Source: a virus
Lineage: Duplodnaviria > Caudoviricetes
Reading direction: 5' to 3' (one strand)
Virus record (IMG/VR): IMGVR_UViG_3300030104_004717
Coordinates: 1 to 53,252 of that record
Length of the DNA stretch: 53,252 nt
Part shown: positions 71-18,000 of the stretch, one piece after another
Numbering within the stretch: position 1 is the stretch's first letter
Layout: each line of letters begins with the position of its first letter
Notes under the pieces: generated by a model
Database searches by the model: none
What the model was told of the DNA's origin: nothing
Seen by the model: the letters and a program-made list of their open reading frames with translations, nothing else
Made by a program: the position numbers and the translations under genes

Positions 71-1474
71 ATGGACAATTACGATGTAAATAACTCCAAC
101 AGTTCTGGATCTGATGGAGATGCTAATATGGGGGGAGGTATACCTTCCATTGTTGACGGCTCTGGGGATTCGATAATTAATGATGGTAACACCAATACTA
201 ATAACCAGTCGGTTCTTGGTGGGTCTATAACTGGTGGAAATACAACTGGAACAGTAGTTGATACCAGTGCTGAACTGGCAGACTTGATTTTGGAAAAAGT
301 TCAAGATTTAGCTAATTTAACTACGAAAACTGCATACATTCCTTATGCTCCCTCGTATGCTCGTGATACCTATGGCCCAACTTATTATGATCAAAGAACG
401 GATGGCGGTGCTGATGCAAATATCATTAACTCAAAAACACTCACTAGCAAATTTCCAGTTTATAGAATATTCTTTAAAGGTTCAACTGAGCCTACTGATA
501 TAATGACTCAAAGTGTCTGGTCAATTTGTAGGCACAAAGGAATTTTTGCTGGAGTTGGTAATGAGGCTGGATATTATCAAAAGGGATCTAAGATGACGAG
601 CCTTCACTTTGCAGGCAACAAGCACCCGTGGAACCCGTTAATACTTCCATCTAATCCAATCAGAGGTTCAGGTAGTTCTCAAATATCAAATGGAAGCGCT
701 AACATGGGCGACAATTATATGCCTTTGGAGCACGTTGAAGCGGTCTTTCACAGGAATGTTATTCAAGGAGCGGCAAACATTAGCCACTCAGGTAACGCTT
801 ATGGCCCTGAAGTCATTAAGAGCAATGCTTATAGAGTTCATTTAAAAAGTGGAGCCACCTTTGATTTGAATGCTGGAGGCTACACCGTCACAAGCCAGCC
901 AACTTTAAGAATGATTAAACCTGAAGGCAACTTTGATACTGTTGATAAGATAGAAAGATCAACAAAGCCCTTAGTATACTTCTACTCCTACGGCGGCCAG
1001 TATTACACTGGAGACTTTCATAACGCTTCTACCTTTTCAGGGAGCTACCCTGCTAATACACAATCTCATTCATATATGCTAAGAACTGGATTGGCAGGAG
1101 CTAAGGTGGGTCACTTTGCCTATGGTAGCTCAAGTTATTCTGGACTTACAGTTGATGGCAATGAAGGCAACTACACAACCAATGTTTCCGACCCAGTAAA
1201 AGGTGATCCATTAAGCCTTGATACAGGAGCCACTTACCTTCCTTTAGAAAACATTAAAGCCATCACTAAACTAAACAGTGGAGATACAGGATATTCATTA
1301 AATAGCACTACAGATTTAAACAATTCTAATGTTCTTCCTTATCAAACTCACGTTCGTGACAGTCAAAACAACTCGTCTCCACTGTTAAACATGGCATTAG
1401 GTAACAATGATCGAGGCTATACTAATGTATACCAACCAGCTGACGCTGGAGCCTCAACACTGATGACAGAATAA
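71..1474 (+). CDS. Hypothetical virion/tail-associated protein (467 aa)
   Basis: Long ORF rich in Gly/Ser/Asn/Thr, typical of beta-rich structural proteins; no catalytic motif recognised. Confidence 0.55.
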   Translation: MDNYDVNNSNSSGSDGDANMGGGIPSIVDGSGDSIINDGNTNTNNQSVLGGSITGGNTTGTVVDTSAELADLILEKVQDLANLTTKTAYIPYAPSYARDTYGPTYYDQRTDGGADANIINSKTLTSKFPVYRIFFKGSTEPTDIMTQSVWSICRHKGIFAGVGNEAGYYQKGSKMTSLHFAGNKHPWNPLILPSNPIRGSGSSQISNGSANMGDNYMPLEHVEAVFHRNVIQGAANISHSGNAYGPEVIKSNAYRVHLKSGATFDLNAGGYTVTSQPTLRMIKPEGNFDTVDKIERSTKPLVYFYSYGGQYYTGDFHNASTFSGSYPANTQSHSYMLRTGLAGAKVGHFAYGSSSYSGLTVDGNEGNYTTNVSDPVKGDPLSLDTGATYLPLENIKAITKLNSGDTGYSLNSTTDLNNSNVLPYQTHVRDSQNNSSPLLNMALGNNDRGYTNVYQPADAGASTLMTE

Positions 1475-1771
1475 TTAATCCCCTGTCCTAATACCTCTGT
1501 ATCCTTTATTGTTGTTAAGGTTCTGAAGTTTAACGATAGCTTTTTCTAACAGCTCTATACTTGCGGCGGCATTTTCAGCTATAGCTCTATCTTTTGTAGT
1601 TTCAGCCCAGAATTTTTTACCCTTACCTTTATTAAGAACACTGTAAGCCATTGGCTCTAAATAGCTTTGCCAAGTCTCGCCTTGCTTGGCTAACATATTT
1701 TCTATTTTGATCTTGTCTGATTCAGGTAGTCTAAATGTAGTGGTTACTCTTCTCTCTTGTTTTGGTGGCAT
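1475..1771 (-). CDS. Small DNA-binding protein, ribbon-helix-helix-like; candidate repressor
   Basis: N-terminal RRVTTTFRLPESDKIKIENML has the alternating beta-strand plus helix pattern of RHH proteins; it is transcribed divergently from the integrase across attP. Confidence 0.5.
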   Translation of the reverse strand: MPPKQERRVTTTFRLPESDKIKIENMLAKQGETWQSYLEPMAYSVLNKGKGKKFWAETTKDRAIAENAAASIELLEKAIVKLQNLNNNKGYRGIRTGD

Positions 1772-1844
1772 TTCTTAGTGTGGGTGTTAAATGTGAACAT
1801 ATTTTGTTTCTATTTTTAAAGGTAGACTCAAAGTTGTTCAAGTA

Positions 1845-2101
1845 AAAAGTGTTCTACTATGTGTCATGTATTCATGTCTAATTAATGGGTTTAAAAAAAA
1901 GACATAAAAAAGACATAAGGATTTTGGTTGGTTTTGTAACCACCTTATGGTCATCAAGTTACAATGGCGACCCGTACGGGACTCGAACCCCAGTCTACCT
2001 TTTATTAATGACTCACTTTTGTTCTATTATACTAGTATATCTGCATATTAGATAAGTTTTAACGCAGTCTGCATTTGCAAAAGTGTTCCATTATGTGTCA
2101 T
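1845..2101 (+). repeat. Imperfect 23-bp direct repeat flanking the att core (AAAAGTGTTCYAYTATGTGTCAT at 1845-1867 and 2079-2101)
   Basis: Two copies differing at 2 of 23 positions, one on each side of the tRNA-like core. Confidence 0.75.
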
Positions 2102-2134
2102 TATAAAGACATAAAAAGACATAAAAAGACATAA
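1898..2134 (+). repeat. Integrase arm-type binding sites, AAAGACATAA x5
   Basis: Exact 10-mers at 1898, 1909, 2105, 2115 and 2125: two left and three right of the core, the usual P/P' arm arrangement of a tyrosine-integrase attP. Confidence 0.8.
1965..1990 (-). mobile_element. attP core = 3' end of a tRNA gene (T-loop, acceptor 3' strand and CCA; tRNA-Glu/Asp type)
   Basis: Reverse complement reads GGG-TTCGAGT-CCCGT-ACGGGTC-G-CCA. The 5' half of the tRNA is absent. It lies 155 bp upstream of the integrase, between the arm repeats. Confidence 0.88.
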
Positions 2135-2145
2135 ACTTAAAAGCT

Positions 2146-3381
2146 ATGACTAAAAAATTAGACAACGAGCCTTTTGTTATAGATAGGCTCAAGATTGGCT
2201 CAACCAAATTTTCAATCTACAGTAATAACAAATCGTACACATTGGTTTGGTATGAAAACGGCAGGAGAATACGCAAGACTTTTAAGACGATAGACGAGGC
2301 CAAGAGGCAAGCTAGGACAGCCAAGGCTACAAAAAGCAATAACACTTTGAGTTTGTCTGGAAAGGAATTAAACGAATATAGGGCTACTTTAGACATACTT
2401 AATTCATACGCCAATATGTGTGATTTACCTGAAAGGCCACGCATCGACACTCTTATTCAAGAAGCTATTACTATCCGAAAACAAAAACCTGATAACTACA
2501 CAGTTAAAACGACCTCTGAAGTATTCGAGGAGCTGAAAGCTCAGAAGATTACTAATGGATGCACACGGCAAACCATACTAGACATGGGGTGTTTAAAAAG
2601 TTTTATCAATATGTATCCATCCTATATCCACGAAATATCCAATCAAGACGTTATTGAGTGGAACAATTTAATAGCAAAAGGAAAAGCCGAAAGGACACGG
2701 GCTAATTATCAGAACGCCCTAATAAATCTTTTTAACTACGCACAAAACATGGAATACTTGCCTGACGGTAAACATTCGGCTCACGTTTTAAAAAAAGCAG
2801 GATTGAAAGCGAAAAAAGGTGTAGCTGAAGTAAAGCTCTGGGGTATCAACGAATGGGAAAGGATAATTAATAAATCACTGGAACTAAAAAGCGTTGGAGA
2901 AAACAAAAGAGTTACTATAATGGTAGCGCTGGCAGGGTTAGCTGGTTTGCGAACGAGCGAGATAGCACGGATGGTGTGGAGCGATGTTTTATGGGATACT
3001 AAATATATTCGTGTTCCTGCACACAAATCTAAAAACAACAAAGCTCATCGGCGAATACCCTTATCCCCTTCTCTTGAAGCTTGGCTTAGATTAGCGGGAG
3101 GAGCGGAAGAATCAACAGGCTCTATGACTAAAGTTAAAGACAGAAGCTATGTAACTGAGAGGATAGTTCAAACAACTAAAAGGGCTGGCCTAGAGCATAT
3201 AAACAACGGCCTTCGCCATAGCTGTATATCAGCTTGGATTGCTCAAGGAAATGAAATAGGAACAGTTAGCAACTGGGCTGACAACTCGCCTGCTATAATT
3301 AGGTCTAACTATCTAGGTGAAATTACCCAAGAAGACGGCGAGCGATGGCATTCAATTATGCCACCTCGTAGATCGGATTGA
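2146..3381 (+). CDS. int: Tyrosine recombinase / phage integrase
   Basis: AGLRTSEI (catalytic Arg), SKN (Lys), NGLRHS (box with Arg) and NSPAIIRSNY (catalytic Tyr); N-terminal arm-binding-like region; adjacent to attP. Confidence 0.93.
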   Translation: MTKKLDNEPFVIDRLKIGSTKFSIYSNNKSYTLVWYENGRRIRKTFKTIDEAKRQARTAKATKSNNTLSLSGKELNEYRATLDILNSYANMCDLPERPRIDTLIQEAITIRKQKPDNYTVKTTSEVFEELKAQKITNGCTRQTILDMGCLKSFINMYPSYIHEISNQDVIEWNNLIAKGKAERTRANYQNALINLFNYAQNMEYLPDGKHSAHVLKKAGLKAKKGVAEVKLWGINEWERIINKSLELKSVGENKRVTIMVALAGLAGLRTSEIARMVWSDVLWDTKYIRVPAHKSKNNKAHRRIPLSPSLEAWLRLAGGAEESTGSMTKVKDRSYVTERIVQTTKRAGLEHINNGLRHSCISAWIAQGNEIGTVSNWADNSPAIIRSNYLGEITQEDGERWHSIMPPRRSD

Positions 3382-3631
3382 TGGGCAAATAAGGAACCTT
3401 TGGAGCGACCTTCCCTGTAAACTTTAGCTTGTCGACACACTCAGCTTCAGCTATCGGCCACTGCCATGATCCGCCGGGAGGTGGACACGCTATTTCTGGA
3501 TCCGTTTCAGCCAACTCAACAATGTTGTCGGCGCTCAGTGTTTGACCTTTGGTTAGCTGGCTAATGAAGTGGAAAGCATTTTCTTTCCAAACTTCAACGT
3601 GAAAAAAACTTTCAGGTTCTTCGTTTTGCAT
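3356..3631 (-). CDS. Hypothetical protein (91 aa)
   Basis: ATG-initiated ORF convergent with int that fills the gap between int and the next gene. Confidence 0.55.
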   Translation of the reverse strand: MQNEEPESFFHVEVWKENAFHFISQLTKGQTLSADNIVELAETDPEIACPPPGGSWQWPIAEAECVDKLKFTGKVAPKVPYLPINPIYEVA

Positions 3632-3716
3632 AAGTTATTATATGTTAGTAATTTGTGGCTATTGTTAGTTCTAACACAGTCTGAATTGTGTTAAATTGTT
3701 TTGACATTATTAAGTC

Positions 3717-3965
3717 ATGTTTAATATTGGGTCAACAATTATAATGAAGACTCAACTTAATATTACGAACAGTATTGATTGGTTAAACGAGAACACTCAA
3801 AGCTCGTGGAGCCGATCAAAATTTTACAGAATGCGCAAATTAGATTTTTTCTCAGGATCATGGAGAGCTGATAAATCTACGGAATATTTCACAATAAACG
3901 CCTTAAAAAGAGGCTGTGAAGACATTGGAGTTCCTTTACGGAAGGGGTTGAAACGTGCCAGATAG
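3717..3965 (+). CDS. Small HTH protein, excisionase/Cro-like (start may be 3744)
   Basis: First gene of the rightward early operon near int; the WSRSKFYRMRK segment resembles the AlpA/Xis recognition helix. Confidence 0.5.
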   Translation: MFNIGSTIIMKTQLNITNSIDWLNENTQSSWSRSKFYRMRKLDFFSGSWRADKSTEYFTINALKRGCEDIGVPLRKGLKRAR

Positions 3966-4233
3966 TATCTCCAGTGAACAAATGAGAGCTTGGCGAAGCG
4001 AGCTTCACAAGTCGTTAGATCAGTCTACCTTCTATTATAGACTCGTAATTGTTTGCTTGGCCGCCTGTATTGGAACCGTGGCATTTGGTTTAGTTTTCCC
4101 AACTATCTTTTTCGTGTTCATGGGACTGGTTTTTATGATTTTTCAAATGAAGCATTCTTGTCGAGCGCAAGAGATTGACTTGTTGCGAACGAAAGCAGTT
4201 AACAATTTTTTGATGAATAAAATTGATGGATGA
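3955..4233 (+). CDS. Hypothetical membrane protein
   Basis: Long hydrophobic stretch LVIVCLAACIGTVAFGLVFPTIFFVFMGLVFMIF; overlaps both neighbours as in an operon. Confidence 0.6.
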   Translation: MPDSISSEQMRAWRSELHKSLDQSTFYYRLVIVCLAACIGTVAFGLVFPTIFFVFMGLVFMIFQMKHSCRAQEIDLLRTKAVNNFLMNKIDG

Positions 4234-4630
4234 AGCGCTGAGGAAAGTTCTTAAAAAAGTTCCCAAGAAAAAAAACAAGTATGGTGCTAAAAAAGCAGGA
4301 TCCCTTTTGTTCGAGGGACGGATGTTTGACTCTAAGGCTGAAAGAGATAGAGCTGAACAGCTTAAGGTTATGGAGAGGGATGGCGATATACAGGAGCTAG
4401 AACTCCAGCCACAAACCTCACTTTCGAAAGCAGAGATTGGGTACAAGCCAGACTTCGCTTACACGGAAAATGGGGTGCGCATTTATGAAGACGTAAAGGG
4501 GGTTGAAACTGAAGGCTTTAGAATAAAGGCGAGACTCTGGAAGAAGTATGGATATGGGCCATTAAGAATAACAAAAAGAAAGGGAATAAAATCTCCCTTC
4601 ACTATCTCAAAAACTATTTATGTGGATTAA
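4223..4630 (+). CDS. DUF1064-like PD-(D/E)XK nuclease (putative junction resolvase)
   Basis: NKYGAKK, FDSKAE, LELQP, YKPDFAY and EDVKG motifs are characteristic of DUF1064. Confidence 0.85.
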   Translation: MMDEALRKVLKKVPKKKNKYGAKKAGSLLFEGRMFDSKAERDRAEQLKVMERDGDIQELELQPQTSLSKAEIGYKPDFAYTENGVRIYEDVKGVETEGFRIKARLWKKYGYGPLRITKRKGIKSPFTISKTIYVD

Positions 4631-5312
4631 AGTAGAAACGAAATTACGCAACAGTCCGAAAGTGTTCACGATTGCCATGAGAATGGGAGTGCCAAGGATT
4701 ACAGCCCTCGGAGCAGTGATTGAGGCGTGGATGATCGCTGATTCTCACGCTGAGGAAAATGGGTTCCTCAAACACCTCACTTTTGAGGCTCTTGATGAGA
4801 TGGTTGGGGTAAAATATCTTGGCACAGCAATGAATGAGGTTGGCTGGCTGGTTGAGGTTGAGGGAGGATTAAGTTTTGTGGATTACACAAAACATAACGG
4901 CTCGACTGCTAAAACAAGGGCTGAAGATGCAGAAAGACAAAGGAAGTGCCGGGAAAATAAGAAGGCAAAACAGGATGAGGAAAACAAGAATAAGGAAAGT
5001 GTGACACCTGTCACGGTTGTGTCACAAAATTCCGTGACCAGAGAAGAGAAAAGAAGAATAGATAATATATATAATGCCTATCCGAGAAAGGTCGGGAAGG
5101 CAGATGCTTTGAAGGCGATTGGTAAATCGCTGAAGAAAGAAGAGTATGAGTTTCTTTTAAAGAAAACTAAAGACTTTGCTCTGAGCAGACAGGCCGAGGA
5201 TCCTCAATTCACCCCCTACCCCTCAACTTGGTTCAACAGAGAGCATTACCACGATGAAATTGAGAAGGTTAAACCTAAACCCACTGGTGAAAACTTTATG
5301 GCAAAACTATAA
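4620..5312 (+). CDS. Phage replication initiator / replisome organiser
   Basis: N-terminal WIKVE, central AERQRKCR, C-terminal YPRKVGK...PYPSTWFN..HY.DE domain; directly upstream of the helicase; contains iteron-like repeats. Confidence 0.8.
   Translation: MWIKVETKLRNSPKVFTIAMRMGVPRITALGAVIEAWMIADSHAEENGFLKHLTFEALDEMVGVKYLGTAMNEVGWLVEVEGGLSFVDYTKHNGSTAKTRAEDAERQRKCRENKKAKQDEENKNKESVTPVTVVSQNSVTREEKRRIDNIYNAYPRKVGKADALKAIGKSLKKEEYEFLLKKTKDFALSRQAEDPQFTPYPSTWFNREHYHDEIEKVKPKPTGENFMAKL
5001..5075. promoter_or_regulatory. Putative replication origin inside the initiator gene
   Basis: Four GTGAC/GTCAC units within 5001-5040, followed by a purine run and an AT-rich tract (to about 5075); lambda O-like layout. 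Confidence 0.55.
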
Positions 5313-6652
5313 TGATTGAAGAACAAGTAGATACAAAAGATGAAGCTCTAAAACAGGCGGAGCTTAAGGTGATTGGATGTTTTGCGGCAGACTCCACCTA
5401 CGGTAAAAGGACAGGGGAAGAAGCCGTTGCCAAGGCAATGAACTACATCCCGAACGGCAGTTATTTCTCAAACACTTTCAGGTCATTGCTCTGGGATTTA
5501 ATTATTGAGTTAGTAGAGGATGGCTCCCCTCTTAGCTTATCTTCTCTGGCAATTAAGTTAGCAGAAAAGGAAGACAAAATTCCTTCACACATTTGGTCTG
5601 AAGTTATGGACGCTACGGATGACTGTGAGGAATCAGCAGACCACATTGAGTTCTATGCTAAACAGGTGGCTGATAAGTATTTTCACAGGATAACTCACCA
5701 ACAACTCCACCAGCTAACGGAAGGGGTTAGTAAGGGATCGGTTGATATTGATCAGCTAGAGGAAGGGATATTATCACTTAAAGAACTAAAGAATCACCAT
5801 TCTGATAAATCAAAAAACATAGGAACCGTTTTAAATGAACTGCTCCATCAGCAAATGGAGAACCACAAGAACCCAGGCATTCGAGGAGCAAGAACTGGAT
5901 TTGATAAACTGGATTCGAATCTTGGAGGTTTACAAAAGCAAGCGTTCATCGTGGTTGGCGCTCGGCCGTCAGCAGGAAAAACAGCCTTAGCTTGTAATTT
6001 GATGTCTGGTCTTGCCAAGCGAGGACACCGTTCCCTTTTCATCTCCCTTGAAATGACAAGCATTCAAGTCAGTACACGACTCGTAGCCGAAGCCTCAAAA
6101 ACAAGCTATCAGATATCCAGTTTTGAAAAACAGCCGAATGCGACTGAACACGCCAGAATCAACAACGCCATGAAAAATCTTAAAGAATGGCCGTTAGAAA
6201 TTTATGATCCCCCCACCCAAACTATTTCACAAGTTTGCTCAAAGATTAGAGAAGCTGGGAGGCAAGGTGTTGAGGTTGTTATGATTGACTACGTTGGTTT
6301 GATTCGACCTGAATCAAAAGAGCAAAGACAATCTCGTTATCTACTTATCACCGAATGTTCAGCAAAATTAAAAGCGGCGGCTAGAGCAGCAAATGTAGCC
6401 GTTATCTGCTTGTGCCAACTTAGACGAGAAGCCGAAAAGAATGACAAGCCAAAGATGAGTGATCTGAGAGAGTCAGGACAGCTTGAACAGGATGCCGATG
6501 CTATCATTTTGATTCATAGACCTGAAAGAGAACAAGACATTGTGATGGAGGATGGGTTTTTACTCGTATCAAAAAACAGAAACGGCCCGACAGGAGACGT
6601 AGATATCGTCTTCAATCGCCGCACCATGACATTTTCAGAAGGGATAATTTAA
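5312..6652 (+). CDS. dnaB: Replicative DNA helicase, DnaB family
   Basis: Walker A GARPSAGKT, SLEM, IDYVGLI, CQLRR, DLRESGQLEQDAD and KNRNGPTG. Confidence 0.96.
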   Translation: MIEEQVDTKDEALKQAELKVIGCFAADSTYGKRTGEEAVAKAMNYIPNGSYFSNTFRSLLWDLIIELVEDGSPLSLSSLAIKLAEKEDKIPSHIWSEVMDATDDCEESADHIEFYAKQVADKYFHRITHQQLHQLTEGVSKGSVDIDQLEEGILSLKELKNHHSDKSKNIGTVLNELLHQQMENHKNPGIRGARTGFDKLDSNLGGLQKQAFIVVGARPSAGKTALACNLMSGLAKRGHRSLFISLEMTSIQVSTRLVAEASKTSYQISSFEKQPNATEHARINNAMKNLKEWPLEIYDPPTQTISQVCSKIREAGRQGVEVVMIDYVGLIRPESKEQRQSRYLLITECSAKLKAAARAANVAVICLCQLRREAEKNDKPKMSDLRESGQLEQDADAIILIHRPEREQDIVMEDGFLLVSKNRNGPTGDVDIVFNRRTMTFSEGII

Positions 6653-6894
6653 TGACACTTGATGAGTTTGCAGAAATAAACCCCGAAGCGATCCAAGCTG
6701 ACGGTTGGGATGAAGCTTTTATTGGATATGTCGAAAGGGCAGATCAGTTACCAACTGCTTGCTACAGCAAGGAAAAGATTATTGAGTTATCCAAGCGTGA
6801 TGGCATAAGCGAAGAGCAAGCGCTCGAATACTTTGAATATAATATTGTCAGCGCCTATGTCGGCGAGTTCACCCCTTTTTATTTAACGGTATGA
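6652..6894 (+). CDS. Conserved hypothetical phage protein
   Basis: ADGWDEAFIG...EQALEYFEYNIVSAYVGEFTP pattern, which I recall from aquatic phages; translationally coupled. Confidence 0.7.
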   Translation: MTLDEFAEINPEAIQADGWDEAFIGYVERADQLPTACYSKEKIIELSKRDGISEEQALEYFEYNIVSAYVGEFTPFYLTV

Positions 6895-7364
6895 GTGAAA
6901 TAATTATCAGACTTAACCAAGCCGAAAAAGAAATTTGTGCAAAGATTGGAATGCGCAGGCAGTTAACCAACAGGGCTATCGGAACAGTAAACCAAAAGGT
7001 ACATACTAAAGATTCTTTTGAAGTAGATCGAGACGGTTTTGCAGGAGAGATGGCCTTTTGTAAAATCTTCCGAATCTATCCAGACTTTGAAAACAACCGA
7101 GCCGATGCCGATGCTTATCATCCAGAACTCAAATGGGTAGATGTGAAGACGGCTCCTGAGAGCCACCACAACCTATTGGTACGCCAACCCAAAGCTGATC
7201 ACCCAGCCGACACATACGCTCTCGTTATCGGAAAATGGGAGACAGGAGTGTTCAGCTACGTTGGCTATGCTACAAAAGAGATGGTCTTTAGGGATGATAA
7301 TCTCGTAGATCCCGGTTTTGGGGTTTGCCACATGATTAAAAGAAAGGATTTAATTTTGCCATGA
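6891..7364 (+). CDS. Hypothetical protein, possible restriction-endonuclease fold
   Basis: GFAGEMAF...D...VDVKT arrangement resembles PD-(D/E)XK; ATGA overlaps at both ends. Confidence 0.55.
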   Translation: MSEIIIRLNQAEKEICAKIGMRRQLTNRAIGTVNQKVHTKDSFEVDRDGFAGEMAFCKIFRIYPDFENNRADADAYHPELKWVDVKTAPESHHNLLVRQPKADHPADTYALVIGKWETGVFSYVGYATKEMVFRDDNLVDPGFGVCHMIKRKDLILP

Positions 7365-7891
7365 CCAATACACACATCATGCTCGACATTGAAACTTTAG
7401 GAACTAGTCCTAAGTCAGTTATCTTTGCAGTAGGGGCTGTAAAAATAAAAGACAATAAGATAGCTGGAAGTTTTTTGGGATACCCATCGATTGAGTCATG
7501 CTTAGATTTAGGACTCACTATTGAAGCAGACACGCTCAAGTGGTGGATGACTCAAAGTGACGATGCTCGCAAGCAATTCAGTGAAAAGACAGGCAAATTA
7601 AAAGAGATACTGAGCGATTTTAACTACTGGTGCGGCACTTCAAACGATCTATACCTCTGGGGAAACGGTGCTGACTTTGATAATGTTCACCTCGCTGAGG
7701 CTTACAAGGCGTGTAAGATGAATCAACCGTGGAAGTTCTGGAATAGTAGGTGTTTCAGAACAATCAAAGGGCTGTACCCAGACACTATCTCACCTTTAAA
7801 GGTCGGAACTAAACACAATGCTCTGAATGATGCTTTAGCTCAAGCGCACCACCTTATCCAAATATTTAAAGACAATGGACTACCCTACTGA
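7361..7891 (+). CDS. DEDDh 3'-5' exonuclease (Rv2179c/DUF5051-like)
   Basis: MLDIETLG (Exo I), WGNGADFD (Exo II) and HNALNDA (Exo III). Confidence 0.88.
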   Translation: MTNTHIMLDIETLGTSPKSVIFAVGAVKIKDNKIAGSFLGYPSIESCLDLGLTIEADTLKWWMTQSDDARKQFSEKTGKLKEILSDFNYWCGTSNDLYLWGNGADFDNVHLAEAYKACKMNQPWKFWNSRCFRTIKGLYPDTISPLKVGTKHNALNDALAQAHHLIQIFKDNGLPY

Positions 7892-7955
7892 TCCTATTCC
7901 TATCTGGATGCTGTTCCTTCTAATAGGAATTATCTTATTTCTAATTTTCTTTTAG
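7875..7955 (+). CDS. 26-aa single-TM micropeptide (MDYPTDPIPIWMLFLLIGIILFLIFF), not in the ORF track
   Basis: ATG 7875 to TAG 7955; overlaps the exonuclease 3' end and ends just before the next promoter. Confidence 0.45.
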   Translation: MDYPTDPIPIWMLFLLIGIILFLIFF

Positions 7956-8002
7956 TTAGTCTACCTTTATTGGTTGACTCATGTTCTACAATGTGTCATT
8001 AG
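7956..8002 (+). promoter_or_regulatory. Promoter/operator heading the small-ORF array
   Basis: TTAGTCTA-N10-TTGACTCA; TTGACT as -35 at 7974 with a weak -10 17 nt downstream. Confidence 0.65.
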
Positions 8003-8027
8003 TTATTTATTAACTCAAAAAACTAAC

Positions 8028-8243
8028 ATGACACTATATACATTATCTTACACACTCCACGGAAACGAAGACGAGCTTTACTACTTGCCTACAAAAAAAG
8101 CAGCGTTGGAATACTTAAAAGAAGAAAAAGAGCGCCACGGCAAAACCAATATTACTGATGCAAGTATCAGCTCTTTTGATTTTAAACTTACAAAAAAAGA
8201 CATTGCCAGTCTTTTGAACAGCGAAGTAGGCACAGGCTTTTAA
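8028..8243 (+). CDS. Hypothetical protein, array ORF 1 (start corrected from 7974)
   Basis: ATG at 8028 ends the conserved leader TAACTCA6CTAACATG shared with three other genes. Confidence 0.75.
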   Translation: MTLYTLSYTLHGNEDELYYLPTKKAALEYLKEEKERHGKTNITDASISSFDFKLTKKDIASLLNSEVGTGF

Positions 8244-8244
8244 T

Positions 8245-8304
8245 TCGAAACTCCCTTAAGGGGAGTCATCAGCCTTTAGCAAGTTGATCTGACGAGATAG
8301 CTAA
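8245..8304 (+). ncRNA. Hammerhead ribozyme, type II, with loop I/3'-tail pseudoknot
   Basis: GAAA 8247-50; stem III CTCCC/GGGAG; GUC triplet 8265-67; stem I ATCAGC/GTTGAT; CTGACGA 8289-95; stem II TC/GA; pseudoknot TTAGC 8276-80 with GCTAA 8300-04. Confidence 0.92.
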
Positions 8305-8322
8305 TAACTCAAAAAAACTAAC

Positions 8323-8748
8323 ATGGTAACATTAAAAACATTAAACAAAGCATTTGCCAGCTTAGGCATAGAACTTGTATGGGGTAACTCATGCGGAAGC
8401 GGAAGGTACTTTTACTTCATTATCTCAGACATCAAGCAGTGTCCTCTGCAATTCTGTAAGGGTGAGATTTTTGGTAACGACCATCAACTCGAAGAGTCAT
8501 GGGGCTATGGATTCCCATTAAATCACATCACTCCTACAGGGTGGATGGAAGAGGCCGTAAGCCAACTGATTAGCGTTGCAGAGCACTGGGACAGAGGTAA
8601 TCACAAGTTCACCAACTGGGAAAAAACAGCCATGAGAATGGTACTCCACGACAAGTTGTCTAAGAACTACAAAGTTGCTGAGACTTACAAGCACCCTAAG
8701 CCAGAATCAGTCAACTGGAACCATCACGTTGTAAAGGAGGAGGCATAA
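8323..8748 (+). CDS. Hypothetical protein, array ORF 2
   Basis: Conserved leader before the ATG; ends in the conserved GGAGGAGGCATAA junction. Confidence 0.75.
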   Translation: MVTLKTLNKAFASLGIELVWGNSCGSGRYFYFIISDIKQCPLQFCKGEIFGNDHQLEESWGYGFPLNHITPTGWMEEAVSQLISVAEHWDRGNHKFTNWEKTAMRMVLHDKLSKNYKVAETYKHPKPESVNWNHHVVKEEA

Positions 8749-8749
8749 G

Positions 8750-9217
8750 ATGGATATTTGCAGAAGAGACAAAATAGAAAAAATCAGTAGCGACAAACTT
8801 CAAGCGCAACTCAAAATACAATATGAAAATTTTGAGGATACACCTAATCAATCACGCATTGAGTTTTTGGAAACGCTCATCAATAACTACAACAAAGAAC
8901 TTAGAGCATTGAGGCAGGATATAAGAGGCTGGGTTTTAGATACACAAATCGACAGCCTTTTTAAAAACAAGAAGGTTTTAGACGAGCCTTCTTTTTCAGG
9001 ACCAGAGGACTACTGGTATCTTGAGAATTACGAGGACTATCTCATAAGCAGAGCAACGTGGCACATCAATAACGGAGGACCAATGAATAATAATTTCAAG
9101 TATGATGCTTTTGTCATAGGCATAGATAGAATTCACGATGATGGAAGCCGAGAACATCTTTCAACTTTAACAGTTGGAGATATGTGGGATGAACCTAACT
9201 GGGAAAGGGGCGCATAA
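8750..9217 (+). CDS. Hypothetical protein, array ORF 3
   Basis: GCATAAGATG junctions at both ends; N-terminal coiled-coil-like segment. Confidence 0.75.
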   Translation: MDICRRDKIEKISSDKLQAQLKIQYENFEDTPNQSRIEFLETLINNYNKELRALRQDIRGWVLDTQIDSLFKNKKVLDEPSFSGPEDYWYLENYEDYLISRATWHINNGGPMNNNFKYDAFVIGIDRIHDDGSREHLSTLTVGDMWDEPNWERGA

Positions 9218-9218
9218 G

Positions 9219-9611
9219 ATGAAGATCGACAAACTAGGATTTATCAGAGACGAAAAGGGGTGCTATGTGTTTCAGGACATTGGAGTGTTTCACTCTCCAG
9301 TGAATACAGTCAGCGATCCCCAAACCCTCTTTACAGAACTCCCTACGAGCAGGGAAATTATGGCACGGGTCAAGGAGGTTAACCCTACAAACCCTAAGAA
9401 ATTTTGTAGGCGTGATTTATGCAACCTAACAAGCAGGAAGGTTCTCAACACCACCAAAGGGACTATCGACTTAGGCAGTATGCCTCTCGAATTTGCCGAC
9501 TGGACATGGGATGAGGATGTTAAGCCGTACCTTCAAAAAGGTAGCCAGATCGAAGAGAAATGGATGAGCTTTAAAGTTCACGCTCGTTGGACAGTAAGGG
9601 AGGGCGCATAA
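9219..9611 (+). CDS. Hypothetical protein, array ORF 4 (start corrected from 9174)
   Basis: ATG at 9219 lies in the conserved GCATAAGATG junction. Confidence 0.75.
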   Translation: MKIDKLGFIRDEKGCYVFQDIGVFHSPVNTVSDPQTLFTELPTSREIMARVKEVNPTNPKKFCRRDLCNLTSRKVLNTTKGTIDLGSMPLEFADWTWDEDVKPYLQKGSQIEEKWMSFKVHARWTVREGA

Positions 9612-9612
9612 G

Positions 9613-9903
9613 ATGGGAAAAATAACATATACAAAAAGGGATCTTTGGTTGGCTTATAAAACCTATCTTCAGGCAAGTCCTAGATCAAAAACGATCCACG
9701 TAACAATCGAGATGGAGGTAGATAGAAACGAATTTGTTGCATCACGATTAGTTGGAGAAAGCTTTAATCAAGAAGACTTTGAAAAAGCAGAGCCGCTTTT
9801 TGAGCCAGAATACACTGAACACGTAAGTTCATTAGTGTGGACTGAAGTGGTAGAGAAACTATCTGACCTGCACGGGTCAATAACAATAAAGGAGGAGGCA
9901 TAA
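9613..9903 (+). CDS. Hypothetical protein, array ORF 5
   Basis: GCATAAGATG junctions at both ends. Confidence 0.75.
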   Translation: MGKITYTKRDLWLAYKTYLQASPRSKTIHVTIEMEVDRNEFVASRLVGESFNQEDFEKAEPLFEPEYTEHVSSLVWTEVVEKLSDLHGSITIKEEA

Positions 9904-9904
9904 G

Positions 9905-10342
9905 ATGGATACACCAGAAGAGTTTCTAGAAGTAGTTAAAAAAAGTTATCCGAAAGCTGAGAGAATCTATCTATCAGCTTTTAGGTGGGGTGCTCCAACC
10001 GACAAACATAACCCTACTGCTGGCAAAGATATAATTACCAAAAGTACCCTGATGGATGTAGATGGTAATATAAAAAAGTTTACATGGCTAAACACTTGTT
10101 TCACATGGTTCCCTTATGAAAAAAGCACAGAGCAAACCCTACAGGAAATGTTTGGAGAGGACATGGAAATTTCTATGCCTTTACTGTCCTACCTATACAA
10201 GCATGGGGTAACCAGAATCCGTATTTTGGTAGAGGGTGACGGTCAAGAGTTGGCAAGAATGGCAAGCTACGGTCTTAGTGAGTTTGGCTTCTATTTCAAA
10301 GGCTGTACTCCACAACAACGTAGCGGGCTGATGGCTCTTTAA
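9905..10342 (+). CDS. Hypothetical protein, array ORF 6
   Basis: Preceded by AAAGGAGGAGGCATAAGATG. Confidence 0.75.
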   Translation: MDTPEEFLEVVKKSYPKAERIYLSAFRWGAPTDKHNPTAGKDIITKSTLMDVDGNIKKFTWLNTCFTWFPYEKSTEQTLQEMFGEDMEISMPLLSYLYKHGVTRIRILVEGDGQELARMASYGLSEFGFYFKGCTPQQRSGLMAL

Positions 10343-10352
10343 AAAAACTTAG

Positions 10353-10400
10353 TGGGTCTACCTTTTAATTGTTGACTCATGTGTCAGTTTGTTTCATATT
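10353..10400 (+). promoter_or_regulatory. Second promoter/operator of the array
   Basis: TGGGTCTA-N11-TTGACTCA; -35 TTGACT at 10372, 17-nt spacer, -10 CATATT at 10395. Confidence 0.7.
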
Positions 10401-10432
10401 AATACCAACTTAAATAACTCAAAAAAACTAAC

Positions 10433-10771
10433 ATGGCTAAAACAACTTCTTTTCCTTCCTTATTTCCAACCTTTATGTTCGGCTTCGGTCAGAAGCTAAA
10501 GCTCGATTATCAGTACGATATTGAGATGGACGAATGGATTGGTTTTCCTATCTTCGATTCACTTGATGATGACGAGGCATGGATGGACGACCCTCGCTGG
10601 GATATTCCTAGGAAAGAGCTTCGTCTTATCACACAGACATACAACGAAGCAGGCAAATGGGATTCAGAAGTGTTAAACCCAGACAGAGCATTGGCTGACC
10701 TTAAAACCAATCTCCAGCACTTCCATAATTTTGGATGGGGGTCAGAAGGCAAAGATAAGTGGAGCGCATAA
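10433..10771 (+). CDS. Hypothetical acidic protein, array ORF 7
   Basis: Conserved leader; ends in GCGCATAA. Confidence 0.75.
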   Translation: MAKTTSFPSLFPTFMFGFGQKLKLDYQYDIEMDEWIGFPIFDSLDDDEAWMDDPRWDIPRKELRLITQTYNEAGKWDSEVLNPDRALADLKTNLQHFHNFGWGSEGKDKWSA

Positions 10772-10795
10772 TTTAAATAACTCAAAAAAACTAAC

Positions 10796-11191
10796 ATGAA
10801 AAAAACCACACCTTCCCAATACGCTATAGATAGACAATATCAGATCGCAGATGCTTGGCGCTTCAGAAATGGCAAGTTTAAAGACTACACACTCGAAGAG
10901 TGGAGACAGAAGAAAAAAAACAAGAATCCTGCTGTTGCCTCTTCCCACCTTGCTTGGGTTATTACACAATGGAACGATGAATTTTTCGACAGAGAATTTG
11001 GATTCGATAGAGTCTACGGCAAAGATCTGTTGCTCAAAAAAATTGCCCTCGTTATGAAATATGAAGGCAAGTGGCATCACATGACAAAATTTAAGGAGCC
11101 GTGGGATCTTATTGAGGCTCTTGAGGACTTTGCTTCAGGTATGCAGACAATGGCTAATTTTATGATTAATAACCCAAGGAGGGTCGCATAA
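10796..11191 (+). CDS. Hypothetical protein, array ORF 8
   Basis: 26-nt leader identical to that of ORF 7; ends in AGGAGGGTCGCATAA. Confidence 0.75.
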   Translation: MKKTTPSQYAIDRQYQIADAWRFRNGKFKDYTLEEWRQKKKNKNPAVASSHLAWVITQWNDEFFDREFGFDRVYGKDLLLKKIALVMKYEGKWHHMTKFKEPWDLIEALEDFASGMQTMANFMINNPRRVA

Positions 11192-11192
11192 C

Positions 11193-11963
11193 ATGGATAC
11201 AGCACAAAATCTTCACCCTTTCGAGAAGTCAGGCATGGGCATAGGCCCATTTGAGTTCGTTGGCAGTATACTTTTACCGTCATCTACATTTGCAGAGCAT
11301 AACCCCAGTGCTTACCAAGCAAGCCTAAAGGAAGCGCACGGCGAAGCCAGCAGGCACGGAGTCAGGTTAGGCAGTTGCAATCACTGCGGTACTGGTCTTA
11401 TGCACCACTGCATTATTAAAGATTCTAATGATGTTAGATTTGTAGTCGGTAATATCTGCGTCCAAAAGACTGGTGACGGTTACCTTGGAGATAAAACTAA
11501 GGTAGCCGCTAGAAAAATGGCGGCTGAGGTCAAAGAGCTTAATAAACAGATCAAGCATGAGCAGTGGCTCGCATCTCCCTCTAAGGAAAATCCTGAGTTG
11601 AGCAATGAGCAGTTGGCTGAAGTCAAAAGACAGGAACGTGAAGCTCGTTACAGGCGTGAGGCAATACTTTCTCGTGAGAGGTTTGTAGCTACTTACTCAA
11701 AAGCCTGTGAAACTTGGGGATTTTACTTTGATAAAGTTTGGGGTACTACAGACCTTAAAAAGCTAGAGAAAATTTTAGATGACGCTTATCAGGGCTTTAC
11801 CGTTAGCGTCACTCAACAGATGATGAGAGGTGAAAGTCTCTCTTGGAAACAGTGGGACATCTGCGCTGACATCTATGCTAAAACAGCAGGTCGCAGTAAC
11901 AGCAGAGCCTATGGCGATGCATACGATGAATTTTCTAACCAAGTTATCCACCTTCGTGACTAG
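11193..11963 (+). CDS. Hypothetical protein with putative Zn-binding CxxC...H...C region, array ORF 9
   Basis: CNHCGTGLMHH...VGNICV; preceded by a GCATAACATG junction. Confidence 0.75.
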   Translation: MDTAQNLHPFEKSGMGIGPFEFVGSILLPSSTFAEHNPSAYQASLKEAHGEASRHGVRLGSCNHCGTGLMHHCIIKDSNDVRFVVGNICVQKTGDGYLGDKTKVAARKMAAEVKELNKQIKHEQWLASPSKENPELSNEQLAEVKRQEREARYRREAILSRERFVATYSKACETWGFYFDKVWGTTDLKKLEKILDDAYQGFTVSVTQQMMRGESLSWKQWDICADIYAKTAGRSNSRAYGDAYDEFSNQVIHLRD

Positions 11964-12349: not shown

Positions 12350-13495
12350 ATGATAGCCAATTCAAAGATCATGTTAGGTGATTGCAGGACTGAGCTAGAC
12401 CTATTGGAGGAAGGGTCGGTTCAGTCTTGCATAACTTCCCCACCCTATTGGGGACTTCGAGACTATGGTACAGCCACTTGGATTGGAGGTGATTCTAATT
12501 GCTCTCATCAGAGAGACTCAAAACTTAAACCAGAGAACACATTAACAGGTCATAAAAATTTAGAAAAAATGAATGGCGTTGGTGATTCCATTTATAAAAC
12601 AGAATGCCCTAAGTGCGGTGCCATCCGTAAAGATGATCAGCTTGGGCTGGAATCCACCCCAGAAGAATATGTTGCCAGCATGGTGGATGTATTCAGAGCC
12701 GTTAAAAGGGTCTTAAAGGACGATGGAACGCTTTGGCTTAATCTTGGCGACACTTACTGCGGAGCAGGACACAAAGACGATGGCAAGGATCCTAAGCACA
12801 AAGAAGGTAGAAACTGGGACGGACACAAAGCCCCTAACAACAAGGTTGAAGGACTAAAGCCAAAAGACCTTATCGGTATTCCTTGGAGGGTTGCCTTTGC
12901 GTTGCAGGCAGATGGCTGGTATTTGAGGCAGGACATCATCTGGCACAAACCGAATCCGATGCCAGAACCAGTCAAGGATCGCTGTACTAAATCACACGAG
13001 TATATATTTCTGATGAGCAAGTCTGCGAAGTATTATTATAATAATGACGCTATTAAGGAGAGGTGCGAGGAGTCAAACATTGAAGATTACAAGCGCCGCA
13101 ATACTTTTGACAATAAAGGCACAGGGAAAGGAAGTTACGAGGAGGCTCGTCCCGATCTTTGCAGGGGGCGGGAAGCTTATATGCCTGACGACTTTATGCG
13201 TAACAAGCGTGATGTATGGACGGTTAACACACAGCCCTACAAAGATGCTCACTTTGCTACCTTCCCAACTAAACTCATTGAACCTTGCGTATTAGCTGGA
13301 TCACAGGTAGGAGACACCGTACTTGACCCATTTGCAGGCTCAGGAACTACAGGTCTAGTCTCAGTAGAAAACGGCAGGAATTTTGTAGGAGTAGAACTTA
13401 ACTCAGACTACAAAAAGCTGGCAGAGCAGAGAATAAATACAGCGCAACCATCGCTTTTTAATTATACATCAACCACAAAAACACTAACATTATAA
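12350..13495 (+). CDS. DNA methyltransferase, N4-C/N6-A beta class (orphan)
   Basis: Catalytic TSPPY near the N-terminus, DIIWHKPNPMP, HFATFP, and SAM-binding LDPFAGSGTT near the C-terminus. Confidence 0.95.
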   Translation: MIANSKIMLGDCRTELDLLEEGSVQSCITSPPYWGLRDYGTATWIGGDSNCSHQRDSKLKPENTLTGHKNLEKMNGVGDSIYKTECPKCGAIRKDDQLGLESTPEEYVASMVDVFRAVKRVLKDDGTLWLNLGDTYCGAGHKDDGKDPKHKEGRNWDGHKAPNNKVEGLKPKDLIGIPWRVAFALQADGWYLRQDIIWHKPNPMPEPVKDRCTKSHEYIFLMSKSAKYYYNNDAIKERCEESNIEDYKRRNTFDNKGTGKGSYEEARPDLCRGREAYMPDDFMRNKRDVWTVNTQPYKDAHFATFPTKLIEPCVLAGSQVGDTVLDPFAGSGTTGLVSVENGRNFVGVELNSDYKKLAEQRINTAQPSLFNYTSTTKTLTL

Positions 13496-14647: not shown

Positions 14648-15028
14648 ATGTATAAATTTAGCAGAACTATTGATGGAAAAACCATTGAACCCTTAAACGA
14701 TGGAGTAACACAAGTAGCGCCATTACCTGACTTCACTTCAGAAAGTAAGTATGTGAAGATCACAGTAGGAGCCAACACTGAATCGAATGTAACTTTGCCA
14801 GATGGATGCATAGGCTTTGAGATTGAAACTCAACTCACTGACCTCATCATTGATTGGCAGGGTGCTACAGGTATTCCAAACAGATTAACAGCGACAACAA
14901 TAACAGCCAGCAACTTCAGCCCAGGCATTATAGCTCCCACGGAAAGAAGATCATTTACTGTAGGCTCACTTAAAAAGATTTATCTTTACTCACCAACAGC
15001 AGGTGATGTGAACATCTACGTCTTTTAA
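14648..15028 (+). CDS. Small beta-rich putative virion protein
   Basis: Coupled (TAATG) to the large fibre gene; alternating hydrophobic pattern. Confidence 0.6.
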   Translation: MYKFSRTIDGKTIEPLNDGVTQVAPLPDFTSESKYVKITVGANTESNVTLPDGCIGFEIETQLTDLIIDWQGATGIPNRLTATTITASNFSPGIIAPTERRSFTVGSLKKIYLYSPTAGDVNIYVF

Positions 15029-18000
15029 TGAATAGAGGCACAAGACTAGGAATAAGTAGTCGTCAATCAGAGCGTTCTACAGGAAGAAGTCAGTTAGACC
15101 CAACTGAACTCAAGAGAGATTACAATTTTCTCTCAGGGAAACTGCATGGCGACATAACTTTCAGTAGAGGCAGTAACGCAACTCTCGTGGGGTCTGATGG
15201 GCTGATTAAGTATGCTCCTCATAACTTGTTACCAAGATCAAACGAGTTCACGCATTCTGATTGGAACAACCCCACTAAGATGACTGCTAATAGGGCTATT
15301 AGTCCTACAGGTGAAAACAACGCATCTGAGATTACGACAGAGAGTGCGATCTATGATTCAGTTGGTAATGTTGGCGGTAATATTACTATCTCCATCCATG
15401 CCAAAAAGAATACAGCCACTCACTTCGTTTTGTCAGGGGGTTATCCTACAGCCAATCGTGTTATCTTTGATCTTGAGACAGGCGTAGCTTGTCAAGTTGT
15501 TGGAGTCGCTAAACACACATCTGAAAGCCTCGGAAATGGTTGGTTTAGATTTTCCGTTAGCGTACCGAGTAGTTCAACGGATTACATTCAATTCTCAGGA
15601 CGATCATCATGTGCTTATGCATCGAATAACAGAGTCGTAGGTGTCTATGTGTACGGAGCGCAGATTGAACGCACATTTGATCTGAACTCTGGGCCTCAAG
15701 CCTACATTGAAACTACAGGATCAGCAGTTCATGGTGCTCGCTTCGACTACGACAAAGACGGAAACAGCAAGGGATTACTTATTGAAGAGGCGAGGACTAA
15801 TTTATTTACTAACTCAGATTTTACTTCTGGTTGGGCTTGGTACAACAATCTAAACCCTGCCCCTATATTAAATGCAGGAACAGATCCTAGTGGTGGCAAT
15901 AACGCTGTTAAAATAATAAACGATAGCGGTAACGAGTATAAACTATTACGCCCTTCTACAAATCCTACTGCTACAACCGATAATACTTATTGTGCAAGTG
16001 TATACGTCAAAGACGCAGGTTCGAGATATTTGGTATTCTATTTAAGTGATTCTGCTAGTCGTGCGCTACAAGTTGATTTACAAACAGGCCAAGTTGCTTC
16101 TTTTAATGGCAATGGTGGTTACGGAGTTGAGGAAGTAGGTAACGATGGATGGTACAGGGTATGGTTTAGCCACACGATGACTGCTACTATGGGAAGTATA
16201 AGCATAGTCCCTTCTAATAGTTCTTATGCTACGAGTCTTGCAGGAAACGGAACTGATGGCTTATTGGTATGGGGCGCACAATTTGAGCAGGGTTCCTTCC
16301 CAACATCGCTCATAGGAACCTACGGAGCTTCTGCAAGTCGTTCTGCGGATGTAGCTAAAGTAGATGGTCTTGCGTTTAGTAGATTCCATAAAGAAGGAAC
16401 AGGAGGAGCTTGGCTTGTTGACTCAACAGAATTAGCTGAAGACAGAACAACTCAATCAAGTCCATTTCTAGTACATGAAAGCGGTGGCTCTAGATTGAGG
16501 GTAGGCCCAAAAGTTGGCGGTGGTGCTACCAATGCAATTGCGGTCTATTACCAAGATGGTGGTGATATGATTTATAGTGCAGGGGCGTTAGGAACTGTCA
16601 CTAAGGGCGTTAAGTCTAAGCTAGGAGTTACCTTTAAAACAAACGATGGAGCATTTACTCGTGATGGGAAAACACCGAATACCGACACAAGTATTGCTAA
16701 TATTTACTCACCAACAGAATTAAGACTTGGGGACAACGGATCAGGTACTACAGTCTTTTGTGGTCACATAGCTAGACTTCGTTATTTCAATAAAAGAATT
16801 TCAAACAACAAACTAAAGAAGGAAACAGATACACCTTTCTTATTAAACAAATATCCTAGAGCAAAAGCCGCACACTCTTTAAGAGCCTTGATGGATGATT
16901 CAGCTAACAGCCCAGTTACCAGAATTAGAAGATCCTACGATAGTTTTGAAGCAGACTACACAGCTAATCAAGTTTCCAATGGTGAGTTAGAGAATGATTT
17001 TAAATCGGAAGCACAAACCACATTGCCACTCGATGTTTCTGTCGAAGCTGATGAGATGGTAGTTAATGGAGACTTTTCTCACGCTTCTAATGGATGGGTA
17101 CTTGATACAGGATTCTCTATTGGAAGCGGTACTTTGAACAGAGCAGCAGCAAGTGCATCTTTTGCGCAAGTTAGCTCGATGGGGGTAGTGGTAGGCAAGA
17201 CTTATGACATTAATTTTGATATAGTCAATCATTCGACTGGCATAAACTATTTATCCTTTGGAGGAGATTATTTAACAAAGACACAAAATTCTAATGGTAG
17301 TTATAGCTATAGAATAACAGCTACCTCTACTCAGAAACTTCAATTTTACGCAGGGACTAATGCAGTTTACTCTATAGACAACATATCAGTCAAAGAGGTC
17401 AACCCAATAGCAACTGGCTTCTCTACTCGTCTTATTAATGCTGATTACAAAGGTAAGCCTCTAATGAGAATTAGGAATCAATCCAATGTAGAGGCAGAAC
17501 TCTATGCTGATGCAAATGATCAAATTTCACTCTCATCAAGTATCAAAGGATCTAGTCAAAATCTTCTTGCATACTCTGAAAACTTTGGTGAGTGGGGGGT
17601 TCAAAATTCATCAGTCCAAACTTCAGGTCAAAGCGATCCAAACGGAGGGCAGAATGCGTGGCTTATTTCTGGAGGAACAGCAGCAGCAGGAGGAGTAACT
17701 TTAGATGTAGCTGTAACAAACGATAAATACTACACCCTGTCTGGATATTTTAAAAAAGGTACATCAACAAAGACACGACTTTCCATTCATTACAAATATA
17801 TTGAATGGGACTGGAGCACATCAGGAGTACCTTCGCTAACTGCTAATAGTTCAGAACCTTTAAGCATAACATTCACTCCTGTAGGCACTGATGGATGGTA
17901 TAGGATTAGTTTTGTTTGGGAAGCTACTGCTACTGCTACTCGAACTATTAATATTGATCCTGATAGAAACAACACTAACAAAACAGTCTATGCGTTCGGA

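Follow-up and report, generated by a model that had tools for sequence, protein, structure and literature searches.

A 64-base motif on the coding (+) strand of a phage genome, at positions 8243-8306, is very probably a genuine type II hammerhead ribozyme that cuts a shared mRNA after C8267 and thereby parts ORF1 from ORF2 to ORF6. Positions throughout are those of the window, the whole stretch of 53,252 nt that we analysed, a complete-looking IMG/VR record of 53 kb. Three things are established here: the motif itself, its membership of the hammerhead family on the evidence of structure and covariation, and a stereotyped position between genes. Self-cleavage by the window's own copy is predicted from its sequence.

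Direct reading of positions 8101-8460 gives the following architecture, and each position and coordinate that a sequence-only reading had assigned to a complete core in type II order checked out on re-reading. The 3' strand of stem II comes first (U11.2 and C11.1, 8245-8246) and forms two pairs, U8245-A8297 and C8246-G8296, with the 5' strand (G10.1 and A10.2, 8296-8297). It is followed by core nucleotides G12 A13 A14 (8247-8249), which are placed by the sequence and by alignment to both Rfam model RF02276 (Hammerhead_II) and a model of sibling sequences described below, and by the stem III hairpin, which runs from A15.1 to U16.1 (8250-8266) and has seven pairs (A8250-U8266, CUCCC 8251-8255 with GGGAG 8261-8265, and U8256-G8260) and the loop UAA. 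C17 lies at 8267, and alignment of the core to the same two models puts the predicted cleavage site at 8267/8268. Sequence reading and a descriptor scan place the stem I hairpin at 8268-8288, where AUCAGC (8268-8273) and GUUGAU (8283-8288) form six pairs, one of them G-U, around the 9-nt loop I, CUUUAGCAA, at 8274-8282. The second core segment, C3 U4 G5 A6 C7 G8 A9 (CUGACGA), occupies 8289-8295. Two linker nucleotides after stem II the 3' tail begins, and its GCUAA (8300-8304) is complementary to UUAGC in loop I (8276-8280), giving a pseudoknot of 5 bp. Thus C3 U4 G5 A6 N7 G8 A9, G12 A13 A14 and H17 are all present, as are the A15.1-U16.1 and G10.1-C11.1 pairs (8246-8250, 8266-8267 and 8289-8296), and the helices stand in type II order, with stems I and III closed by loops and stem II open. 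In type II hammerheads as described in PMC3088659, loop I forms a pseudoknot with the nucleotides just after stem II, and stem II may be as short as two pairs. The element resembles RF02276 and the hammerheads of Perreault et al. 2011 (PMC3088659) in its core, type II topology, two-pair stem II and pseudoknot of at least four pairs directly after stem II.

The strongest evidence for the fold comes from siblings of the element. Metagenome contigs were scanned with a pattern consisting of the core, free stems and the fixed tail AGCTAA, with loop I left open. The scan returned 97 parsed matches, among which 46 have stems I and III of at least four contiguous pairs (mostly 6-9), and the remaining 51 have stems of mostly 0-2 pairs, as for chance matches. 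TTAGC, the complement of the tail, occurs in loop I of 29 of the 46 matches with good stems vs two of the 51 others, one of these two being an allele of the window's element with a mismatch in stem I; the loops of the 29 usually carry the same CTTTAGCAA. Of the 37 unique good sequences, the 21 with a 9-nt loop were aligned for covariation, whereas three sequences resembling the window's and 13 whose loop I is built differently were left out. In this alignment 97.3% of cells are paired vs 77.5% in shuffles, and 11 of 20 pairs change on both sides, including all six pairs of stem I and four of the six aligned pairs of stem III. The variable pair of stem II (the position of U8245-A8297) is UA in 15 siblings, CG in three and AU in two. 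The covariation score is 0.527 vs 0.117 in shuffles and at most 0.104 with slid partners, and none of 500 shuffles reaches the observed score. The rows had been picked because their stems are contiguous, which in part builds in the high pairing; neither the range of pair types nor the loop I and pseudoknot results carry this bias. Compensatory change in the helices is thus present across the siblings, and the window's own clade is too uniform for such a test. Stems I, II and III all covary among the siblings, with the core intact across the subfamily, and this compensatory change around an intact core shows selection on the fold.

We then built a covariance model, R1, from the 21 sibling rows with the window's clade left out. 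Searched against the window with filters off, R1 scores 79.2 bits (E 1.7e-19) at 8242-8305, and the next best among the 13 matches listed scores 14.3 bits. The siblings define a widespread subfamily, mostly from uncultured phages, whose members have six pairs in stem I, nine nucleotides in loop I (CUUNNGCAA), two pairs in stem II and a pseudoknot of 5-6 bp. Some phage contigs carry three to four subfamily hammerheads a few hundred bases apart that bracket single small genes; examples are L143, with copies at 619-685, 888-954 and 1457-1522, and L243, with three copies, and four further loci (L205, L221, L234 and L241) lie on one 87-kb IMG/VR contig. Representative prokaryote genomes gave no match to the pattern with the CTTTAGCAA loop. 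A looser pattern matched four MAG contigs in these genomes, and because the four come from four different lineages no host can be inferred.

The pseudoknot was examined in a second scan, of IMG/VR, in which the pattern fixed neither the tail nor the six bases in the interior of loop I. This yielded 71 parsed matches, 39 of them with good stems, 36 unique and 34 uncut by contig ends. In the 35 rows formed by these 34 siblings and the window, the pseudoknot columns are 85% paired, and both partners of every stem I pair vary here too. Pair 12-38 is GC in 10 rows, AU in nine, UA in seven and CG in four; pair 13-37 is AU in 25 and GC in seven; and pair 14-36 is GC in 28 and takes four other types besides. 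The overall covariation score over the 35 rows is 0.803, a value that none of 500 shuffles reaches, and slid controls give at most 0.147. The five pairs of the window's pseudoknot stand in exactly the covarying register. The pseudoknot between loop I and the 3' tail that had been proposed from the letters of the window thus covaries among siblings, and it matches the architecture described in PMC3088659.

The score against Rfam, which falls below the cut-off, together with the misses in normal scans, is the main result counting against the ribozyme. A scan of the window at the gathering threshold, the one search that also covered other ribozyme classes such as twister, pistol and hatchet, gave no match to Rfam, and neither a scan of 8150-8400 (251 nt) at E<=10 nor an RF02276 search of the whole 53-kb record reported a hammerhead. 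When positions 8238-8310 are given alone (73 nt), RF02276 aligns over its full length (model positions 1-66 of 66) at 31.7 bits, with an E-value of 2e-5 for that small search; we attribute the misses in normal scans to Rfam's speed filters because of this full alignment. The gathering cut-off of RF02276 is 37 bits, an operational threshold rather than a structural feature, and the window's copy stays under it. With the Hammerhead_II model, which the sequence-only reading had named as a check, the full-length alignment from 73 nt was obtained, but the element is unmatched in normal scans and below 37 bits. In the alignment the core and the stems match, and points are lost to the AU-rich stems, to one inserted base after the core and to the tail (AGCUAA vs the consensus AGCCaA). 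The AU-rich stems, divergent tail and extra linker base therefore account for a score below the cut-off, and we read the shortfall as a matter of AU-rich stems and a divergent tail, not of non-membership. The same three features distinguish the window's copy from the RF02276 consensus; siblings that share its loop and tail do pass the cut-off. At the gathering threshold, Rfam reported eight of the 23 ribozymes that our pattern had found in 20 sibling loci (38.3-43.4 bits), and it also picked up another hammerhead in L143. Members of the subfamily thus lie on both sides of the threshold, and the subfamily belongs to the known family, and the window's copy is one of its lower-scoring members. 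Taken together, the full-length RF02276 alignment, the score against the sibling model and the covariation of the stems bear out the assignment to type II with a 2-bp stem II.

The element lies between two small genes. ORF1 (8028-8243, +) encodes 71 aa from the ATG at 8028, or 89 aa from a TTG at 7974, and ends in a TAA stop at 8241-8243; it had no match in PHROG. The ribozyme starts 2 nt past this TAA and takes up 61 of the 79 nt that separate ORF1 from the ATG of ORF2. Its tail overlaps by 2 nt a repeated A-rich leader, AATAACTCAAAAAAACTAAC, which begins at about 8303 and, with the ORF2 ATG (at 8323), occupies 8303-8325 (+), about 23 nt devoid of a Shine-Dalgarno sequence. The leader and ATG occur in four copies (8001-8031, 8297-8326, 10407-10436 and 10770-10799) and precede four start codons, including those of ORF1 and ORF2. 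Downstream stand five small genes, ORF2 to ORF6 (8323-10342, +), which would form the 3' cleavage product and for which PHROG gave no informative match, so that 'early', as the sequence-only reading calls the genes around the ribozyme, is a conjecture. The next promoter-like repeat follows ORF6, starting at 10349. The placement claimed for the ribozyme in the sequence-only reading, directly after the ORF1 stop, ending at the conserved leader of ORF2 and ahead of five genes, was thus correct on all three counts. Upstream of ORF1 is a promoter-like repeat (TTGACT, 17 nt, CATTAG; 7952-8002, +), the putative start of the ORF1 transcript. A second copy is found at 10349-10400, with an entry at 10372 that a promoter scan lists as sigma-70-like, and a related contig, L003, has a third ahead of its ORF2 homologue (1455-1490). 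The variants of this repeat have TTGACT or TTGACC, 17 nt, and CATTAG or CATATT, and one heads each small-gene block. Genes inside the blocks use a strong GGAGG site in place of the leader, and a coupling junction, GGAGG..GCATAAGATG, in which a gene's TAA stop stands one base before the next ATG, is repeated at 8732-8756, 9208-9221, 9595-9619, 9887-9911 and 11175-11199.

The siblings occupy the same kind of site. In 43 distinct contexts, no sibling was located within an ORF on its own strand. Of 41 contexts, 38 have the end of a same-strand ORF no more than 19 nt upstream, and in 16 the distance is exactly 2 nt, as in the window. On the other side, no more than 35 nt separate the tail from the next ORF start in 31 of 36. 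The genes that flank the siblings fall into 26 similarity clusters upstream and 31 downstream; the ribozyme is therefore tied to gene boundaries and not to particular genes.

From this arrangement a mechanism can be proposed. Driven by the putative promoter near 7974, a single mRNA would begin at about 8008 and span ORF1, the ribozyme and all five genes from ORF2 to ORF6; both the promoter and the joint transcript are predicted from the sequence. A search for RNA runs that contain this stretch listed none. The RNA would fold and cut itself after C8267. Upstream of the cut, an ORF1 message of roughly 260 nt would be left, finishing 24 nt past its stop codon with the stem III hairpin and a 2',3'-cyclic phosphate. 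The other product would carry ORF2 to ORF6 and start 55 nt ahead of the ORF2 ATG with a 5'-OH, followed by the stem I hairpin and the pseudoknotted tail. Ends of these two kinds are the established cleavage chemistry of the family (PMC8782182). The two messages could then differ in stability and translation, and the purpose of cleavage may be to stabilise the downstream message or to uncouple it from ORF1. The uncoupling hypothesis is already in print for phage hammerheads (PMC3088659; PMC6765202). The published view is that phage hammerheads process long transcripts into mRNAs of single-gene or operon length, with function unproven (PMC3088659; PMC6765202), and the placement of the window's copy and of its siblings agrees with this view.

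Close relatives of the locus are few. A blastn search of 7900-8800 against a GenBank phage collection gave no match, and protein-guided searches of IMG/VR led to three loci from ORF2 and two from ORF1, all of them close relatives or loci that lack the element. The ORF1 homologues are 94% identical and precede the same ribozyme in two IMG/VR contigs, and a loop-specific DNA pattern recovered only the same two contigs from IMG/VR. In one the element is identical; in the other G8286 is changed to T, which places a C-U mismatch in stem I. This mismatch allele is present in L001/L011 (IMG/VR) and in L120, a separate metagenome contig. Its hammerhead fold is computed at -6.7 kcal/mol vs -16.0 kcal/mol for the minimum-energy fold, and a competing hairpin is predicted to be favoured. 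At least one lineage therefore tolerates what may, on these folding estimates, be a weakened ribozyme. Among 80 loci with a homologue of the neighbouring exonuclease, the element is found in only two near relatives, and no further hammerhead of any type was detected in these loci beyond weak look-alikes with stems of 3-4 pairs. A Tara Oceans scaffold (L102, 2250-11389) is 100% identical to window positions 1361-10500 over 9140 bases; L102 is the same phage and is therefore not independent support, and it places the phage in marine samples.

The relatives reveal a mosaic structure. Across window positions 7361-8322, DNA identity to L012/L011 rises sharply, from 72% for the exonuclease gene and 82% for the promoter region to 96-97% for ORF1 and 98-100% for the ribozyme, and this suggests a recent lateral exchange of a module. 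In L003 the promoter-like element lies directly before the ORF2 homologue, with ORF1 and the ribozyme both missing, and ORF1 and the ribozyme are likewise missing from the relatives L003/L008 and L009/L010. Another relative, L150, is 99% identical upstream, but a different gene directly follows its ribozyme and leader; in all, three unrelated genes follow the same ribozyme in close relatives. ORF1 and the ribozyme together look like an exchangeable module, and the joint after it looks like a point at which cassettes are gained and lost. This mosaic structure lends support to two minority readings, in which the ribozyme marks a cassette boundary or is a passenger.

The first sees in the ribozyme half of a portable module that sits at gene boundaries in uncultured marine phages, with cleavage timed by translation of the upstream gene and with the ribozyme also marking the joint at which cassettes are swapped. 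It rests on the stop codon 2 nt away, on the fusion to the repeated leader devoid of a Shine-Dalgarno sequence, on the three unrelated genes found after the identical ribozyme in near-identical phages and on a module of 96-100% identity beside a gene of 72%, and we consider it unlikely. That the element is a true hammerhead by descent which merely travels with the ORF1 cassette, bringing no benefit of its own or losing its activity, we hold to be decidedly unlikely. The contrast between the near-identical module and its more diverged surroundings, the exchange of downstream genes, the joint absence of ORF1 and the ribozyme in L003/L008 and L009/L010 and the allele that weakens stem I would all fit a passenger. 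Against this, the 61 nt are unchanged in L012 and L106 while ORF1 differs at seven of 216 sites, and the changes in L092 fall at the tip of stem III and lengthen that stem by one pair. The compensating stems and intact core of the subfamily also speak for selection on the fold, and the recurrent position beside stop codons, with unrelated genes around it, favours a role in mRNA processing.

A third possibility is that cleavage is conditional, tuned by translation of ORF1, or that the cut 5' fragment mainly helps the leader, which has no Shine-Dalgarno sequence, to recruit ribosomes. With the ribozyme 2 nt past the ORF1 stop, a terminating ribosome would cover its 5' strand. The recurrence of this spacing, with the stop exactly 2 nt before C11.1 in 16 of 41 contexts and within 19 nt in 38, favours such a link to translation, as does the overlap of tail and leader by 2 nt, and regulated cleavage of phage hammerheads is raised in PMC3088659. 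However, tight spacing is normal in compact phage genomes and many siblings precede ordinary Shine-Dalgarno sites rather than this leader, and we regard conditional cleavage as very unlikely compared with the processing of a shared mRNA at a gene boundary.

Chance contributes little to the match. In shuffled sequence, the expectation for the bare core pattern is 0.13 per window, with a match in 12 of 100 shuffles; the window itself matches the exact core pattern once. When stems of at least two, three or four pairs are added to the core, the means fall to 0.04, 0.007 and 0 matches per window over 300 shuffles. At the candidate's quality, an analytic estimate gives 8e-7 matches per window without the pseudoknot and 2.4e-8 with a 5-bp pseudoknot; over 250,000 windows we estimate 0.2 and 0.006 look-alikes, respectively. 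When the window was scanned with hammerhead descriptors of types I, II and III, no second good candidate emerged; the sole other type II match (13123-13194) combines 3-4-pair stems with loops of 18-23 nt. The same scans over 0.92 Mb of related phage loci returned the same element and a few look-alikes with stems of 3-4 pairs, and nothing more.

The energetics are less telling. Nearest-neighbour folding of 8240-8310 is unexceptional (z = -1.02), which counts against the element and is not informative. Stems I and III together amount to -13.1 kcal/mol and the pseudoknot duplex to an estimated -5.4 kcal/mol or so. The nested minimum-energy fold, at -14.6 kcal/mol, swaps stem I for a competing hairpin, which also counts against the hammerhead. 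By these estimates the hammerhead fold with its pseudoknot would be roughly on a par with the minimum-energy fold, so that the energetics are compatible with the ribozyme and not decisive.

That the element is a chance look-alike, or that the hairpin at 8250-8266 is a transcription terminator or some other hairpin signal instead of part of a ribozyme, is scarcely credible: the RF02276 score under the cut-off, the unremarkable fold stability and the few core-plus-stem look-alikes that some 250,000 scanned windows could yield (0.2 by our estimate if the pseudoknot is ignored) lean that way, but the expectation with the pseudoknot is only 2.4e-8 per window and 0.006 over all windows, the independent sibling model assigns the window 79.2 bits, and an identical loop I and tail recur with differing stems on many contigs. 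We rejected the terminator reading of this hairpin because no U run follows it and a terminator scan has no entry there.

The window's element is an added member of a known ribozyme family in its usual setting and would not surprise a ribozyme specialist. Like the hammerheads of RF02276 and PMC3088659, it occupies an intergenic site in phage or prophage DNA. Like the clustered copies that PMC3088659 describes in prophages of A. tumefaciens, C. scindens and A. caulinodans, it lies at the boundary of small, varying genes. Those clustered hammerheads flank single genes, and a role in processing long phage transcripts is proposed for them (PMC3088659). Sibling contigs with two to four copies resemble these clusters; unlike the clusters in PMC3088659, the window has a single copy, which would therefore divide one transcript and not excise a gene. 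Haloviruses HF1 and HF2 offer a further parallel. They carry a hammerhead variant 13 nt upstream of a helicase gene, and a mapped transcript 5' end lies within 3 nt of its cleavage site (PMC3088659). As in the window, a phage ribozyme thus stands just upstream of the first ORF of a polycistronic unit (PMC3088659). The HF1/HF2 element is a core variant from an archaeal virus and needs high Mg2+, whereas the window's copy has a canonical core and a pseudoknot and is known from sequence. In Desulfovibrio vulgaris, three type II hammerheads cleave in vivo, as detected by cyPhyRNA-seq, and they too lie near hypothetical and phage-like genes (PMC8782182). These copies sit in the chromosome of a cultured bacterium (PMC8782182), and the likeness to the window is one of type and setting.

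The present work contributes one well-supported hammerhead of type II, plus a sizeable group of siblings from metagenomes, marine and other, to a family whose biological role in phages is still unproven. Because Rfam misses the window's copy and reports only eight of 23 siblings, counts of phage hammerheads are probably underestimates. The regular placement (stop codon, ribozyme, next start) among unrelated small genes provides a simple, testable setting for the role of phage hammerheads, and in close relatives the ribozyme is also found at the point where the downstream gene differs.

Elsewhere the genome encodes an integrase, a DnaB-type helicase, a 3'-5' exonuclease, a DNA methylase, an SU10-type portal and a capsid protein; ARAGORN found no tRNA genes in the window. 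The tyrosine integrase is at 2146-3381 (+; Phage_integrase, E 1.4e-9), and the phage is therefore probably temperate. An ORF of 1911 aa (15028-20763, +) that had no Pfam match precedes one of 5246 aa (21622-37362, +), which accounts for 30% of the genome and carries LPD5, LPD1 and ART-PolyVal domains. Because of the latter we considered an N4-like hairpin promoter for the hairpin at 8250-8266. This was dropped, since Pfam identifies the ORF as a giant 'polyvalent protein' rather than a virion RNA polymerase, and the hairpin is already accounted for as stem III.
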